From Escherichia coli (GTDB taxonomy: Bacteria > Pseudomonadota > Gammaproteobacteria > Enterobacterales > Enterobacteriaceae), in assembly GCF_003334355.1 (NCBI RefSeq), contig NZ_QOWP01000009.1: a DNA stretch of 64,000 nt; one strand, written 5' to 3'. Shown here piece by piece: positions 21,501 through 30,500 of this stretch. Within the stretch, counting starts at the first letter, position 1, and every line of letters starts with the position of its first letter. A program made the position numbers.

Positions 21501-24500
21501 AGTGGCGCACAGCCCTCAGGTGAATTGACCATTGGTAACTACATGGGTGCGCTGCGTCAGTGGGTAAACATGCAGGATGACTACCATTGCATTTACTGTA
21601 TCGTTGACCAACACGCGATCACCGTGCGCCAGGATGCACAGAAGCTGCGTAAAGCGACGCTGGATACGCTGGCCTTGTATCTGGCTTGTGGTATCGATCC
21701 TGAGAAAAGCACCATTTTTGTTCAGTCCCACGTGCCGGAACATGCACAGTTAGGCTGGGCACTGAACTGCTATACCTACTTCGGCGAACTGAGTCGCATG
21801 ACGCAGTTTAAAGATAAATCTGCGCGTTATGCCGAGAACATCAACGCTGGTCTGTTTGACTATCCGGTGCTGATGGCAGCGGACATCCTGCTGTATCAAA
21901 CTAATCTGGTACCGGTGGGTGAAGACCAGAAACAGCACCTCGAACTGAGCCGCGATATTGCCCAGCGTTTCAACGCGCTGTATGGCGAGATCTTTAAGGT
22001 GCCGGAGCCGTTTATTCCGAAATCTGGCGCGCGCGTAATGTCGCTGCTGGAGCCGACCAAGAAGATGTCCAAGTCTGACGATAATCGCAATAACGTTATC
22101 GGCCTGCTGGAAGATCCGAAATCGGTAGTGAAGAAAATCAAACGTGCGGTCACTGACTCCGACGAGCCGCCGGTAGTTCGCTACGATGTGCAGAACAAAG
22201 CGGGCGTTTCCAACCTGTTGGATATCCTTTCAGCGGTAACGGGCCAGAGCATCCCAGAACTGGAAAAACAGTTCGAAGGCAAGATGTATGGTCATCTGAA
22301 AGGTGAAGTGGCTGATGCCGTTTCCGGTATGCTGACTGAATTGCAGGAACGCTATCACCGTTTCCGCAACGATGAAGCCTTCCTGCAACAGGTGATGAAA
22401 GATGGCGCGGAAAAAGCCAGCGCGCACGCTTCCCGTACGCTAAAAGCGGTGTACGAAGCGATTGGTTTTGTGGCGAAGCCGTAATTCACTATTGCTGGCA
22501 AATTGCGCTTTGTTCATGCCGGATGCGGCGTGAACGCCTTATCCGGCCTACAAAGTAATGCACATATTGCAAGGAAATGTAGGCCTGATAAGCGTAGCGC
22601 ATCAGGCAATTTTGCTTTTATCATCACTCTGAAACCGGGGAAACCCGGTTTTTTTATCCTCATTTGCAATAATCCGAAAAAATGTGAAGTGCCTCGCCGT
22701 TTCCACATCTCGCTGTTGCGCCTTATCTTCAAATTCCTGAAGATATAAATATTCAATTTACTGAAAATTTATTATGCGTCGAACGTTTATCAAAAAAGAA
22801 GGCGTCGTCATCACGACGCTGGCCCGTTATTTGTTGGGTGAAAAGTGCGGTAATCGATTGAAAACCATAGATGAGCTGGCAAATGAATGCCGTTCATCCG
22901 TTGGCCTGACGCAGGCCGCGTTGAAAACGCTGGAATCAAGCGGAGCGATACGGATTGAACGCCGTGGGCGCAATGGCAGTTATCTGGTCGAGATGGATAA
23001 CAAAGCATTGCTGACTCATGTGGATATCAACAACGTGGTATGTGCAATGCCCTTGCCCTATACCCGTTTGTACGAAGGCCTGGCGAGCGGATTGAAAGCC
23101 CAGTTTGATGGCATTCCTTTTTACTATGCGCACATGCGTGGCGCGGATATTCGCGTGGAGTGTCTGCTTAATGGCGTGTATGACATGGCGGTGGTTTCGC
23201 GACTAGCGGCGGAAAGTTATCTCACGCAAAAAGGCTTATGCCTCGCGCTGGAGTTGGGGCCGCACACCTACGTTGGCGAGCACCAGTTGATTTGCCGTAA
23301 AGGCGAGTCCGCAAACGTGAAGCGCGTGGGGCTGGATAACCGTTCGGCGGATCAGAAAATCATGACCGATGTTTTTTTTGGCGGTAGTGATGTGGAACGA
23401 GTCGATCTCTCTTATCACGAGAGTTTACAACGCATTGTTAAAGGCGATGTCGATGCGGTGATCTGGAACGTGGTGGCGGAAAACGAACTGACCATGCTGG
23501 GATTAGAGGCGACGCCGCTCACAGACGATCCGCGATTTTTACAGGCCACCGAAGCCGTGGTCCTGACGCGAGTCGATGATTACCCAATGCAACAACTGCT
23601 GCGTGCCGTTGTAGATAAACACGCCCTGCTCGCCCATCAACAACGGGTAGTGAGTGGGGAACAGGAACCGAGTTATTAAACGAAAGGCATCTGATATGGA
23701 AACCAGACTCAACCTGCTTTGCGAGGCAGGCGTTATTGATAAGGACATCTGCAAAGGCATGATGCAGGTCGTCAACGTACTGGAAACAGAGTGCCATCTG
23801 CCGGTGCGCAGTGAGCAAGGAACGATGGCGATGACACATATGGCGAGTGCACTGATGCGCAGTCGCCGTGGTGAAGAAATAGAGCCGCTGGATAACGAGT
23901 TGCTGGCAGAACTGGCGCAATCCAGCCACTGGCAAGCCGTTGTGCAATTGCATCAGGTGTTGTTGAAGGAATTCGCACTGGAAGTTAACCCGTGTGAAGA
24001 AGGCTATTTGCTGGCCAACCTTTATGGATTATGGATGGCTGCTAACGAAGAGGTTTGAAGCTCCCGACAAATCCACGTCGCACAACCTAAATATTCAAAA
24101 AAATGAATATTTAATTCAAGGAACAGAAACGAGGCAACAAGATGTTTGTAGAAGCATTGAAACGCCAGAACCCGGCGCTGATTTCCGCCGCACTAAGCCT
24201 GTGGCAGCAGGGCAAGATCGCCCCGGACAGCTGGGTGATCGACGTGGATCAGATACTGGAAAACGGTAAGCGGCTGATTGAGACGGCGCGGCTTTACGGC
24301 ATTGAACTGTATCTGATGACCAAGCAGTTTGGTCGTAATCCGTGGCTGGCGGAAAAATTGCTGGCATTAGGCTACAGCGGCATTGTGGCGGTGGATTACA
24401 AAGAGGCGCGAGTCATGCGCCGCGCTGGTTTGCCTGTGGCGCATCAGGGGCATCTGGTACAAATCCCTTGTCATCAGGTTGCTGACGCCGTTGAACAGGG

Positions 24501-27500: not shown

Positions 27501-30500
27501 TTCATTCACAACGACATGGAAGCGGCAATGAAGGTGAAATCCGGGCAACTGGATTATTACATCGGCGCGTGTAATACCGGTGCGGGCGCGGCATTGTCGA
27601 TTGCCATCGCGGTGATAGGCTATAACAAAAGTTGCACCATTGCCAAACCAGGCATTAAAGCGAAAGACGAGCATATCGCCAAAATGATCGCTGAAGGAAA
27701 AGTGGCGTTTGGCCTTTCCGTTGAGCACGTCGAACACGCGATTCCGATGCTGATTAACCATCTGAAATAAAAGGCACGACTATGGATCTGTATATTCAGA
27801 TTATCGTGGTGGCGTGCCTGACGGGTATGACATCGCTTCTGGCGCATCGCTCGGCGGCTGTTTTTCATGACGGCATCCGCCCGATCCTGCCGCAACTGAT
27901 TGAAGGCTATATGAACCGTCGCGAGGCGGGGAGTATCGCTTTTGGTCTGAGCATTGGTTTTGTGGCCTCGGTGGGGATCTCTTTTACCCTGAAAACCGGG
28001 CTGCTCAACGCATGGTTACTCTTTCTTCCTACCGATATCCTCGGCGTCCTGGCGATAAACAGCCTGATGGCGTTTGGTCTTGGCGCTATCTGGGGCGTGT
28101 TGATCCTTACTTGCCTGTTGCCAGTAAACCAGCTGCTGACCGCGCTGCCGGTGGATGTATTAGGTAGCCTGGGGGAATTAAGCTCGCCGGTGGTTTCAGC
28201 TTTTGCACTGTTCCCGCTGGTGGCGATTTTCTACCAGTTTGGCTGGAAGCAAAGTCTGATCGCCGCCGTGGTGGTACTGATGACCCGTGTGGTAGTCGTG
28301 CGCTATTTCCCACATCTTAACCCTGAATCCATCGAAATCTTTATTGGCATGGTGATGCTGCTGGGGATCGCGATAACTCACGACCTGCGTCATCGTGATG
28401 AAAATGACATTGATGCCAGCGGGCTTTCGGTGTTTGAAGAACGCACGTCACGGATTATCAAAAACTTACCCTATATCGCCATCGTGGGAGCATTGATTGC
28501 CGCCGTTGCCAGCATGAAGATTTTTGCTGGCAGTGAAGTGTCGATCTTCACACTGGAGAAAGCATATTCCGCAGGCGTAACGCCGGAACAATCGCAAACG
28601 CTGATTAATCAGGCGGCTCTGGCAGAATTTATGCGCGGACTGGGGTTTGTGCCGTTGATTGCCACCACCGCGTTAGCAACGGGTGTGTATGCAGTTGCGG
28701 GCTTTACCTTTGTTTATGCGGTGGGCTATCTCTCGCCGAATCCGATGGTTGCAGCGGTATTAGGCGCAGTGGTTATTTCGGCGGAAGTCTTGCTGCTTCG
28801 TTCGATCGGCAAATGGCTGGGACGCTACCCGTCGGTGCGTAATGCGTCGGATAACATCCGTAACGCCATGAATATGCTGATGGAAGTGGCGCTGCTGGTC
28901 GGTTCGATTTTCGCAGCAATTAAGATGGCGGGTTATACCGGATTCTCTATCGCGGTTGCCATTTACTTCCTCAACGAATCCCTGGGCCGTCCGGTACAGA
29001 AAATGGCGGCACCGGTCGTGGCAGTAATGATCACCGGTATTCTGCTGAATGTTCTTTACTGGCTTGGCCTGTTCGTTCCGGCTTAAGGAAGGCACCTATG
29101 AAGACGTTTCCTCTGCAAAGCCTGACGATTATTGAGGCGCAGCAAAAGCAGTTTGCGCTGGTGGATAGCATTTGTCGCCATTTCCCCGGCAGCGAGTTTC
29201 TTACTGGCGGTGATTTAGGCTTAACGCCAGGACTGAATCAACCGCGCGTTACCCAGTGTGTGGAACAGGTGCTGGCTGATGCATTTCACGCACAGGCTGC
29301 GGCGCTGGTGCAGGGCGCGGGGACTGGCGCGATTCGCGCCGGGCTGGCGGCTTTGCTCAAACCGGGGCAGCGTCTTCTGGTGCATGACGCGCCTGTTTAC
29401 CCGACGACACGGGTTATTATTGAGCAGATGGGGCTGACGCTTATTACTGTTGATTTCAATGACCTGTCGGCACTGAAGCAGGTCGTCGACGAGCAACAAC
29501 CGGATGCGGCACTGGTGCAGCATACGCGCCAGCAGCCGCAGGACAGCTACGTGCTGGCAGATGTGCTGGCAACGTTGCGCGCGGCAGGTGTTCCAGCGTT
29601 AACCGATGACAACTATGCGGTGATGAAGGTGGCTCGAATCGGCTGTGAATGCGGCGCGAATGTCTCGACATTTTCCTGCTTCAAGCTATTTGGGCCAGAG
29701 GGTGTTGGTGCAGTGGTCGGCGATGCTGATGTTATCAACCGTATTCGCGCCACGCTTTACTCCGGCGGTAGCCAGATCCAGGGCGCACAGGCGCTGGAAG
29801 TATTGCGTGGTCTGGTGTTTGCGCCAGTGATGCACGCGGTGCAGGCAGGGGTATCTGAACGGTTGCTGGCTTTGCTTAACGGTGGTGCGGTGCCGGAAGT
29901 GAAAAGCGCGGTGATTGCTAATGCGCAGTCGAAGGTGTTGATTGTCGAGTTTCATCAGCCGATTGCCGCCAGAGTGCTGGAAGAGGCGCAAAAGCGCGGT
30001 GCCTTGCCTTACCCGGTGGGTGCAGAGTCGAAATATGAAATCCCGCCGCTCTTTTATCGCCTTTCCGGAACGTTTCGCCAGGCGAATCCACAATCAGAAC
30101 ATTGTGCGATTCGCATTAACCCGAATCGCAGCGGTGAAGAGACGGTGCTGCGGATTTTGCGTGAGAGTATTGCCAGTATTTAATGCTGGATAGCACCGTC
30201 AAGCTAAATTCCGTACTGAACGGTCCCCTCGCCCCTTTGGGGAGAGGGTTAGGGTGAGGGGAACGTACGGGATGTAAAATTCAACGCGCCAGCATCGCCG
30301 GATGCGATGCTGGCGCATCTTATCCGGCCTACGGTTAATGTCTTTTATTATCAATAGTTAAGGTGATGCGATTGGCGCGGCAGAAGAGTTCGGAGACGTG
30401 CACCGGTTTGTCATTCTGATCAAAGGCGATTTTGCTGATGCGAAACAACGGTTCGCCCAGTTCGCATTTCAGCCATTTTGCCTGCGGGCGGGTGGCGGCA

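Follow-up and report, generated by a model that had tools for sequence, protein, structure and literature searches.

The yhfZ-yhfS cluster of Escherichia coli: a possible catabolic module tied to the phosphotransferase system

Introduction

Among the described systems that come closest to the subject of this work, the Salmonella dga operon combines a D-glucosaminate permease of the phosphotransferase system (PTS) with the ammonia-lyase DgaE and the aldolase DgaF. The Ong pathway includes the amidohydrolase OngB and OngC, a fold-type III deaminase of D-glucosaminate that depends on pyridoxal phosphate (PLP) (PMC9537276), and a cluster of Enterococcus encodes a small glycine-rich cysteine protein, DUF membrane proteins, an amidohydrolase, a lyase of the DgaE family, named as such in that work, and KDGP aldolase (PMC11934601). 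Here, these systems are compared with the yhfZ-yhfS cluster of Escherichia coli, eight genes at positions 22774-30183 of a 64,000-nucleotide stretch of contig NZ_QOWP01000009.1 (assembly GCF_003334355.1), referred to below as the window. That the cluster forms one functional catabolic unit is considered very likely; that it is a sugar-type catabolic operon tied to the PTS and built from non-canonical transport parts is an explanation favoured tentatively, at somewhat under even weight.

The genes and their status as being of unknown function are already recorded in databases. No function was found assigned to any of them in the literature searched by gene, protein and family names, nor any substrate to the cluster, in line with an earlier reading of the window (the first-pass annotation), which had called the cluster functionally unassigned. 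It is one of the largest blocks of E. coli K-12 without an assigned function, although structures are deposited in the Protein Data Bank (PDB) for four of its eight proteins. At least 93% of E. coli genomes contain it, and so do gut and marine bacteria of several phyla. New here are the definition of a seven-gene core with an optional yhfS, the rejection of a link to the neighbouring fructoselysine (frl) genes, a shared operator, the RpiB fold of DUF2620, a permease (YhfT) for which no solved relative was found, and a repeated genomic coupling to HPr, Enzyme I and the PRD domain.

Gene Content of the yhf Cluster

Positions 22000-31000 are 100% identical to several E. coli RefSeq genomes, which identifies the region as E. 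coli chromosome. The eight genes, all on the plus strand, follow trpS, and their coordinates, taken from an open reading frame (ORF) listing and the RefSeq annotation of an identical genome, bear out the co-directional block that the first-pass annotation had described:

22774-23679, plus strand: yhfZ, winged-helix (HTH_41) regulator with YhfZ_C effector domain
23696-24058, plus strand: yhfY, stand-alone PRD domain protein
24142-25305, plus strand: yhfX, fold-type III PLP enzyme, Ala_racemase_N and YhfX-like_C
25305-26531, plus strand: yhfW, phosphomutase of the alkaline phosphatase superfamily, DeoB paralogue
26528-27406, plus strand: php, binuclear-metal amidohydrolase of the phosphotriesterase/lactonase family
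27417-27770, plus strand: yhfU, DUF2620, 117 aa, RpiB fold, invariant Cys52 in a glycine-rich loop
27782-29086, plus strand: yhfT, polytopic membrane protein PF10797, probable permease
29098-30183, plus strand: yhfS, fold-type I PLP enzyme akin to Cys/Met gamma-lyases, optional in the module

The packing is tight, with gaps of 16 nt between yhfZ and yhfY, 10 nt between php and yhfU, and 11 nt on either side of yhfT; yhfX and yhfW overlap by 1 base (TAATG) and yhfW and php by 4 bases (ATGA), exactly as had been read by eye at these junctions. The 83 nt between yhfY and yhfX are the sole sizeable intergenic gap. ORF calling returned longer, GTG-started versions of yhfY (134 aa, 23654-24058) and yhfU (130 aa, 27378-27770), and the alignments of homologues favour the annotated ATG starts at 23696 and 27417, respectively. 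Profile searches (NCBIfam, Pfam) showed every by-eye domain call of the first-pass annotation to be correct, and the enzyme content fits the breakdown of a nitrogen-containing, phosphorylated compound, as had been proposed. A permease accompanied by enzymes is likewise what the cluster encodes, but that description understated the transport end, where a PRD protein (YhfY), an RpiB-fold protein (YhfU) and, in other bacteria, embedded HPr and Enzyme I genes are found.

Co-Inheritance and Selection

The YhfT family is rare: a profile built from a 13-sequence alignment found relatives in some 250 of the 100,044 species genomes, and among 1.8 billion proteins the family makes up 305 clusters at 50% identity. 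About 175 loci from genomes and metagenomes were examined (a further 171 species-genome and 360 metagenome relatives lie outside this set), and dereplication at 80% YhfT identity reduced them to 33 lineages, 20 of which have flanks of at least 6 kb. In these 20, YhfT is accompanied by YhfU and YhfY in 19 each, by YhfX in 18, by YhfZ and Php in 17 each, and by YhfW in 16, with YhfS present in 11. The gene yhfS is therefore an optional accessory, while the other seven form a conserved core that travels together.

Carriers of the module belong to the Enterobacterales, Vibrionaceae, Fusobacteria, Clostridia and Bacillales, and its gene order is shuffled between phyla. Abbreviating each gene by its last letter (P for php), the order is Z-Y-X-W-P-U-T-S in Enterobacteriaceae, Z-Y-P-U-T-X-W in Vibrionaceae and Z-Y-U-T-P-(S)-X-W in most Firmicute and metagenome loci; four Bacillales loci have the end swapped to S-W-X, and in two Clostridia loci yhfY stands between php and yhfX. 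Through these rearrangements, yhfT is directly preceded by yhfU in 27 of the 33 lineages; the median gap is 14 nt (measured over the 29 lineages with yhfU anywhere upstream of yhfT). The permease family also reaches some Actinobacteria and one spirochaete. In the AlphaFold database, E. coli-like YhfT entries (100% and 86% identity) are named as Gasdermin-D of Trichuris trichiura and assigned to Beauveria bassiana; such eukaryote-labelled entries probably stem from contaminating bacteria or from chimeric gene models.

Within E. coli, 5062 of 5426 complete genomes (93%) carry at least 80% of the cluster, 342 (6%) have no match at all, and 22 have a smaller match. The ratio of nonsynonymous to synonymous substitution (dN/dS) between E. 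coli and Citrobacter ranges from 0.035 to 0.094 across the eight genes, at a synonymous divergence that is near saturation, and all eight are under strong purifying selection. Gain and loss as a unit, which had been suggested as a check on the cluster, is thus seen both among the 33 dereplicated lineages and within E. coli: it is a functional module whose members move and disappear together, yhfS being an accessory.

Probable Coupling to the Phosphotransferase System

YhfY matches the Pfam PRD domain (E = 9e-4) and, weakly, TIGR03582. His48, Ala52, Arg55 and Glu101 are invariant in 22 homologues, and the first three form the motif T-H48-x3-A52-x2-R55, so that His48 is, judging by the alignment, the phosphorylatable histidine of the PRD signature. 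An antiterminator of the BglG/LicT type was considered for YhfY and rejected, as the protein has neither the CAT RNA-binding domain nor a DNA-binding domain.

YhfU adopts the RpiB fold and has an invariant cysteine, Cys52, in a cysteine loop after strand 3. With 117 aa, it is some 30-40 residues shorter than the matched RpiB chains (148-158 aa), of which 104-107 residues align; its strand 1 ends in GVAGL, with no Asp-His, and the C-terminal segment that it lacks is presumably the one that holds phosphate-binding residues in RpiB. When kinship with the SFCGS family was looked for, a search with the DUF2620 profile found DUF2620 members alone among the best 120 matches, and against PDB sequences it gave RpiB matches only, all non-significant. 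The fold differs from the known EIIB folds, and YhfU was therefore rejected as a classical EIIB. It may act as a phospho-carrier of a new kind, sit docked on the permease as a trapping isomerase, or be no more than a regulatory partner of the PRD protein.

YhfT is confidently modelled as a permease. Its weak structural neighbours are organic-anion transporters of the elevator type, no solved structural relative was found, and it fits structurally neither an EIIC of the known PTS folds (Glc/Lac, Asc, Man, Gat) nor any solved transporter, so that both assignments were discarded.

The case for a link to the PTS is built on gene fusion and gene neighbourhood (loci are labelled L below where they have to be told apart). 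In L175, a single 267-aa protein (5258-6061) joins DUF2620 (residues 5-119) to a PRD (residues 175-257), which suggests that YhfU and YhfY work together. Downstream of this fusion lie genes for the mutase, YhfX, HPr and Enzyme I, in the arrangement X-HPr-Enzyme I, and L176 shows the corresponding W-HPr-Enzyme I. Elsewhere, an HPr gene lies 10 nt upstream of yhfZ (L130/131), an HPr or Enzyme I gene overlaps the end of yhfW (L080/L075), and an Enzyme I gene is convergent with the cluster (L089). Because HPr and Enzyme I are usually encoded by single-copy housekeeping genes, their presence inside the cluster in four to five of 33 lineages is, by our estimate, far above chance, and a functional link to Enzyme I and HPr is supported by this genomic evidence.

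Several further observations stand beside it. The 477 flanking genes show no recurrent kinase family; Php and YhfW come from families with phosphorylated sugars among their substrates; and the groups that carry the module (Enterobacterales, Vibrionaceae, Firmicutes and Fusobacteria) are rich in phosphotransferase systems, which also occur in the further groups reached by the permease family alone (some Actinobacteria and a spirochaete). The cluster is on balance probably coupled to the PTS in some form.

Catalytic Proteins

YhfX combines an Ala_racemase_N domain (E = 6.6e-22) with a private C-terminal domain, PF21279, and its structure is available (PDB 4KBX). The PLP lysine, Lys61, is invariant in its homologues. 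The nearest solved relatives, alanine racemase (9e-5) and D-threonine aldolase (2e-3), are very distant, and the sole NCBIfam match, to the ornithine racemase Orr, reaches 28 bits against a cut-off of 480; with weak matches only, YhfX falls in no characterised subfamily of racemases, aldolases or deaminases.

YhfW owes its name of phosphopentomutase to NF009049, which it matches over the full length (residues 1-408 of 408, 741.9 bits). As an orthologue of DeoB it was rejected, with 145.8 bits against the 341.2 of TIGR01696 and 183.9 against the 256 of NF003766. It nevertheless aligns to the phosphopentomutase of B. cereus with the catalytic motifs retained: Asp10, Asp83, His88, Asp298, His302, Asp338, His339 and His350 are at least 98% conserved in 114 sequences, and Thr84 is conserved in 90-98% of them. 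In comparison with DeoB, the substrate-cap region aligns weakly (31.0 bits) relative to the C-terminal domain (78.7 bits). A very weak match links YhfW to TIGR02535, a branch labelled "proposed homoserine kinase" (E = 7e-4, 18 bits).

Php, the phosphotriesterase homology protein (NF007373, 655 bits; family PF02126; PDB 1BF6 and 4LEF), conserves His12, His14, Glu125, His158, His186, Asp243, Lys213 and Arg222 in at least 98% of 130 sequences, and the first six are presumably the metal ligands of the 1BF6 structure. The bridging position is read from the sequence as Glu, not Lys. Php is as close to organophosphate hydrolase as to phospho-furanose lactonase, and it was not accepted as an equivalog of the latter, its match to NF045706 reaching 102.4 bits (E = 2.6e-29) against a cut-off of 630.

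YhfS contains the Pfam domains YhfS-like_C, Aminotran_1_2 and Cys_Met_Meta_PP, and has a structure as well (PDB 4J8L). Its family profile finds methionine gamma-lyase at 1.5e-10, and at least 98% of 79 sequences share the PLP lysine Lys196 as well as Asp170. YhfS rises above no curated family cut-off, the best match being 42 bits against 666, and no DgaE-named match appeared among the NCBIfam families at E up to 0.01. Across Php, YhfW, YhfX and YhfS, the conserved catalytic residues suggest active enzymes.

Predicted Operator and Transcription Units

A 24-bp palindrome, AAATATTCA-N6-TGAAWATTT, occurs exactly twice in the 64 kb of the window, against 0.01 expected:

22747-22770, no strand: palindrome copy 1, AAATATTCA-N6-TGAAAATTT, ending 4 nt upstream of the yhfZ ATG; candidate operator
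24089-24112, no strand: palindrome copy 2, perfect, AAATATTCA-N6-TGAATATTT, 30 nt upstream of the yhfX ATG

The second copy sits in the 83-nt gap between yhfY and yhfX. The palindrome is kept at both positions, upstream of yhfZ and of yhfX, from Escherichia to Yersinia and Ewingella; several Vibrionaceae have it upstream of yhfZ at 3-4 mismatches, and two Clostridiales loci have a related palindrome with different half-sites, ATACA-N6-TGTAT. Read from these alignments, the conservation is the phylogenetic footprint of a predicted operator. The half-sites (TGAAT/ATTCA) resemble those of ArgR boxes; an ArgR site was not adopted, since the order and spacing of the half-sites differ and the Clostridiales palindrome has other half-sites.

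YhfZ is the obvious candidate repressor and probably binds both palindromes. It scores 373.6 bits with NF041241 (cut-off 260), carries the Pfam domains HTH_41 and YhfZ_C, and has the layout of a GntR-type regulator, namely a winged-helix DNA-binding domain followed by an effector domain. The latter is a family of its own, neither FCD nor UTRA, and its structure (PDB 2OZZ) weakly matches a periplasmic amino-acid-binding protein.

The first-pass annotation had regarded the eight genes as one tightly coupled operon. The tight packing stands, while the single unit probably does not: the second palindrome copy, in the gap upstream of yhfX, points to two transcription units under one repressor, so that yhfZY and yhfXW-php-yhfUTS are probably co-regulated units sharing an operator rather than one operon. 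This agrees with the operon "php-yhfSTUWX" given in an operon table reproduced in PMC4448311.

Clues to the Substrate

The hydrolase of the module varies between loci. L176 has no Php and instead carries (4517-9649) an NCS1 permease of the cytosine/purine/hydantoin type together with the B and A subunits of a hydantoinase/oxoprolinase. Three loci of the Fusobacteria type, from Sebaldella, a Fusobacteriales metagenome-assembled genome and a related metagenome contig (L062, 11347-12378; L086; L102), encode a weakly amidase-like protein of about 345 aa between yhfT and yhfS, and in the 768-aa protein G5HJH7 of Clostridium citroniae a YhfT domain is fused to a domain that is, by name, an amidase. 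The hydrolase slot is interchangeable, and the replacement of Php by hydantoinase and amidase variants points to a step that would hydrolyse an amide or an ester, either cyclic or N-acyl. A hydantoinase A-like gene was also seen downstream in L110.

A second clue comes from the glucosamine-6-phosphate deaminase NagB, encoded directly downstream and on the same strand in six loci, four of Bacillales and two metagenomic contigs (L078, L079, L084, L085, L115, L136). The proteins of L078, L115 and L136 lie above the TIGR00502 cut-off, and the other three were called by their similarity to that of L078. In some Vibrio and Photobacterium loci (L072, 3127-7217; L052, L055, L058, L060, L064, L065, L073) the cluster lies close to genes for a chitobiose-type PTS (IIB, IIC, IIA), a DUF7916 protein and a porin-like protein, the last of them called by eye, and a Cof-type phosphatase gene follows the cluster in one locus. 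NagB argues for an amino sugar 6-phosphate as the end product, and the logic of a PLP lyase would call for an alpha-amino acid, for instance an amino-aldonate. As a class, an amino sugar or amino-sugar acid in the form of a lactone, lactam or N-acyl derivative is accordingly put forward as possible, albeit doubtful. The pairing of OngB with OngC on D-glucosaminate (PMC9537276) and the make-up of the Enterococcus cluster (PMC11934601) are precedents for it, and the organic-anion transporters that weakly resemble YhfT likewise speak in its favour.

Proposed Pathway and Its Alternatives

The best explanation, advanced with reserve as one that falls just short of an even judgement, is a self-contained, PTS-coupled catabolic module under the control of a repressor, serving a rare carbon source that is hydroxylated and contains nitrogen. 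YhfZ, bound to both palindromes, would repress yhfZY and yhfXW-php-yhfUTS until an effector occupies its C-terminal domain, which resembles a periplasmic binding protein. YhfT, in concert with YhfU, the small cysteine protein, would then admit the substrate, and phosphate would be supplied by the PTS chain that runs from phosphoenolpyruvate through Enzyme I and HPr, relayed or sensed by His48 of YhfY and Cys52 of YhfU. Php would cleave an ester or amide, thereby opening a ring or removing an acyl group, and YhfW would shift the phosphate between hydroxyls by way of a phospho-threonine. YhfX would carry out PLP chemistry at the amino-bearing carbon, either an epimerisation or an elimination as in D-glucosaminate deaminase. 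Where YhfS is present, as in E. coli, a PLP-dependent elimination would yield ammonia and a keto-acid phosphate for central metabolism, and in Bacillales the NagB deaminase may serve as the final step. The data themselves show the gene set, its joint inheritance, the purifying selection on it, the conserved active-site residues, the operator motif and the genomic tie to the PTS; the order of these steps, the route of the phosphate and the class of the substrate are what we infer.

In a stronger version, which is somewhat unlikely, YhfY, YhfU and YhfT would constitute a PTS permease family so far unrecognised in E. coli K-12. Enzyme I and HPr would hand phosphate on to His48 of the PRD, which would serve as a relay in place of an EIIA; from there it would go to Cys52 of YhfU and be transferred to the substrate during passage through a permease of new fold. 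YhfW, the phospho-threonine mutase, would either shift the phosphate to another position or accept it directly, and the SFCGS/DUF4310-4312 clusters would represent a sister branch.

A number of observations weigh against the proposed PTS-coupled module. On the transport side, a PRD domain alone would indicate regulation by the PTS rather than phosphorylation of the substrate, the folds of YhfU and YhfT are non-canonical, and no EIIA-like gene was noticed in or beside any locus in the Pfam lists and recurrent flanking families, with no dedicated EIIA profile search made. The need for a mutase is also unexplained if the PTS already places a terminal phosphate. The core, moreover, is not absolute, several Yersinia and Enterovibrio missing some of its members: among the Yersinia loci (L039, L041, L043-L046, L049, L050) several species have yhfX followed directly by php, without yhfW, which Y. 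nurmii retains, and three Enterovibrio loci (L061, L068, L071) have only yhfU, yhfT, yhfX and yhfW and lack yhfZ, yhfY and php. With regard to the substrate, NagB fits an amino sugar and not an amino-sugar acid, so that the two hints disagree, and its adjacency is mainly a Bacillales feature (four of the six loci). Other neighbours hint at nucleotide-like substrates. In Pluralibacter gergoviae and an Enterobacter species, genes for periplasmic acid phosphatases, an e(P4) 5'-nucleotidase lipoprotein and a PhoC-like enzyme, follow yhfT in the place of yhfS (L037, 11339-12154; L042, 11341-12192 and the next gene), and a lone, distant YhfT (27% identity) adjoins a PNP_UDP_1 gene (L090, 10001-11978). 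The accessory-gene hints thus do not converge on one compound, and the literature searched gave no induction or growth phenotype for the cluster.

These last neighbours would be most at home in a pentose or nucleoside type of route, the strongest competitor, which we nevertheless regard as unlikely. YhfT would here be an ion-coupled permease and the PTS would only regulate, via YhfY, while YhfW would be a true sugar 1-phosphate/5-phosphate mutase and YhfU a true aldose-ketose isomerase of the RpiB type, working on a phosphorylated amino-pentose or a ribosyl-amino-acid. Phosphopentomutases are indeed the closest characterised relatives of YhfW, which retains all of their catalytic residues, the fold and cysteine loop of YhfU match RpiB, and YhfS resembles enzymes for homocysteine thioethers. 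However, the module has no phosphorylase, nucleosidase or kinase, which leaves the origin of the phosphate unexplained. YhfU falls some 30-40 residues short of the RpiB chains, and the place of its gene just before yhfT speaks for a partner in transport, not for a free-standing enzyme; regulation alone, finally, hardly accounts for the DUF2620-PRD fusion together with the embedded HPr and Enzyme I genes.

A route for the lactone or lactam of a hydroxy-amino acid (e.g., homoserine lactone, or the hydantoin or lactam of a hydroxy-amino acid) is less probable still. According to this scheme, Php would open the ring, YhfW would act as a "kinase" that phosphorylates the side-chain hydroxyl from the HPr/YhfU chain, YhfX would racemise the product, and YhfS would eliminate phosphate and ammonia to give a keto acid. 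The phosphotriesterase family of Php is rich in lactonases, the Php-less L176 carries the hydantoinase/oxoprolinase subunits and the NCS1 permease, and YhfS lies nearest to gamma-eliminating Cys/Met enzymes; ornithine racemase as the sole NCBIfam match of YhfX, the "proposed homoserine kinase" match of YhfW and the weak resemblance of the YhfZ effector domain to an amino-acid-binding protein go in the same direction. The TIGR02535 match is, however, very weak, yhfS, the key eliminating enzyme of such a route, is absent from 9 of 20 lineages, and neither the NagB adjacency nor the chitobiose-type PTS and porin neighbourhood of Vibrio fits it. That E. coli retains the genes as a silent, decaying remnant without any role in its present physiology is very improbable, for although the literature searched yielded only incidental screen hits and no phenotype or inducer, 342 E. 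coli genomes lack the cluster entirely, and yhfW or php, yhfZ and yhfY are lost in some Yersinia and Enterovibrio, all eight genes combine low dN/dS values with near-saturated synonymous divergence, 93% of E. coli genomes keep at least 80% of the cluster and only 22 hold a smaller match, and the catalytic residues and the operator are conserved across phyla.

Returning to the PTS-coupled module, the comparative results mark out a candidate operator and repressor for it, narrow the conceivable phosphotransfer reactions to a few and restrict the class of substrates. The substrate is likely to be a nutrient of gut or chitin-rich marine niches whose breakdown has so far not been mapped. Direct coupling to the PTS would mean a new permease family within a system whose inventory in E. 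coli is regarded as complete, and it would provide a first function for DUF2620 and PF10797.

Flanking Features

The elements on either side of the cluster are the following:

about 22512-22610, no strand: inverted pair of repetitive extragenic palindromic (REP) elements, a bacterial interspersed mosaic element (BIME), between trpS and yhfZ, from sequence
22631-22652, plus strand: trpS intrinsic terminator, 9-bp stem followed by a T run
about 30270-30333, no strand: REP element between yhfS and frlR, from sequence
30335-31066, minus strand: frlR, convergent with the yhf cluster and followed by frlDCBA

The trpS terminator sets the cluster apart from trpS transcription. The REP elements on both sides, which the first-pass annotation had noted, are recognisable from the sequence and from sub-threshold matches to naRNA4, an REP-derived Rfam family, at 22512-22548 and 30270-30329; the BIME upstream of yhfZ is also listed in PMC2965389. 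Per E. coli genome, a query that includes the flanks finds a median of 38 places, against 1 for the cluster alone. A GC-rich inverted repeat, ggtcccctcgcccctttggggagagggttagggtgagggg, lies at 30224-30262 between yhfS and the REP element and looks like another type of dispersed intergenic repeat.

As to the frl genes, their convergence with the cluster, noted earlier, is real, frlR being on the minus strand, but they are not a conserved neighbour. The order trpS-[yhf]-yhfL without frl is that of most Enterobacteriaceae, among them Citrobacter, Klebsiella and Buttiauxella, and of one E. coli genome of the species set (L007, L011-L038). A functional link between yhf and frl was thus dropped, and frl (30335-35208) looks like a separate insertion at the locus.

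Three further searches of the region were negative. Rfam at E up to 0.1 gave, by way of riboswitches or leader RNAs, only the sub-threshold naRNA4 matches on the flanks; 11 intrinsic terminator-like sites were found in the region against a mean of 9.3 in shuffled sequence, none outstanding besides the trpS terminator; and the eight proteins had zero matches to the PADLOC models of anti-phage defence.

Comparison with Known Systems

When the proposed yhf pathway is placed beside the described systems, dga offers a parallel in overall logic, as it too unites PTS-linked uptake, a phosphorylated amino-sugar acid and an eliminating PLP-dependent enzyme in a self-contained operon with its own regulator. 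In contrast to yhf, its permease is a canonical EIIABCD of the mannose family and its regulator a sigma-54 activator of the LevR type, and it contains no hydrolase of the phosphotriesterase family, no mutase and no fold-type III PLP enzyme.

The Ong pathway of Pseudoalteromonas, which degrades oxidised chitin (GlcNAc1A), resembles yhf in other respects (PMC9537276): an enzyme of the amidohydrolase superfamily frees the amine, and its fold-type III PLP deaminase is kin to D-serine deaminase and D-threonine aldolase, YhfX having the same distant relatives. Uptake is by an SSS symporter, however, phosphorylation follows only after deamination (KdgK), and a PRD protein, a mutase and an RpiB-like protein are all missing.

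The cluster of the SFCGS, DUF4312, DUF4311 and DUF4310 families shares the yhf architecture, with a small PRD protein (TIGR03582, EF_0829/AHA_3910), a glycine-rich cysteine protein, an amidohydrolase, uncharacterised membrane proteins and a PLP lyase. Nevertheless, every one of these parts belongs to a different Pfam family, KDGP aldolase is present while a mutase and a fold-type III enzyme are not, and the cluster is itself uncharacterised.

The ula system for L-ascorbate anticipates the first steps of the yhf scheme, in that the PTS imports and phosphorylates a lactone and a metal hydrolase opens the phospho-lactone, but its UlaA-type EIIC and UlaB-type EIIB do not resemble YhfT and YhfU.

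Single proteins, finally, follow the same pattern of kinship without identity. Php matches the phospho-sugar lactonases but far below their cut-off; YhfW shares the catalytic residues of DeoB, whereas its cap aligns weakly and it fails the equivalog cut-offs; and YhfU has the fold of the ribose-5-phosphate isomerase RpiB and its cysteine loop after strand 3, yet it is shorter and is encoded beside a membrane protein.

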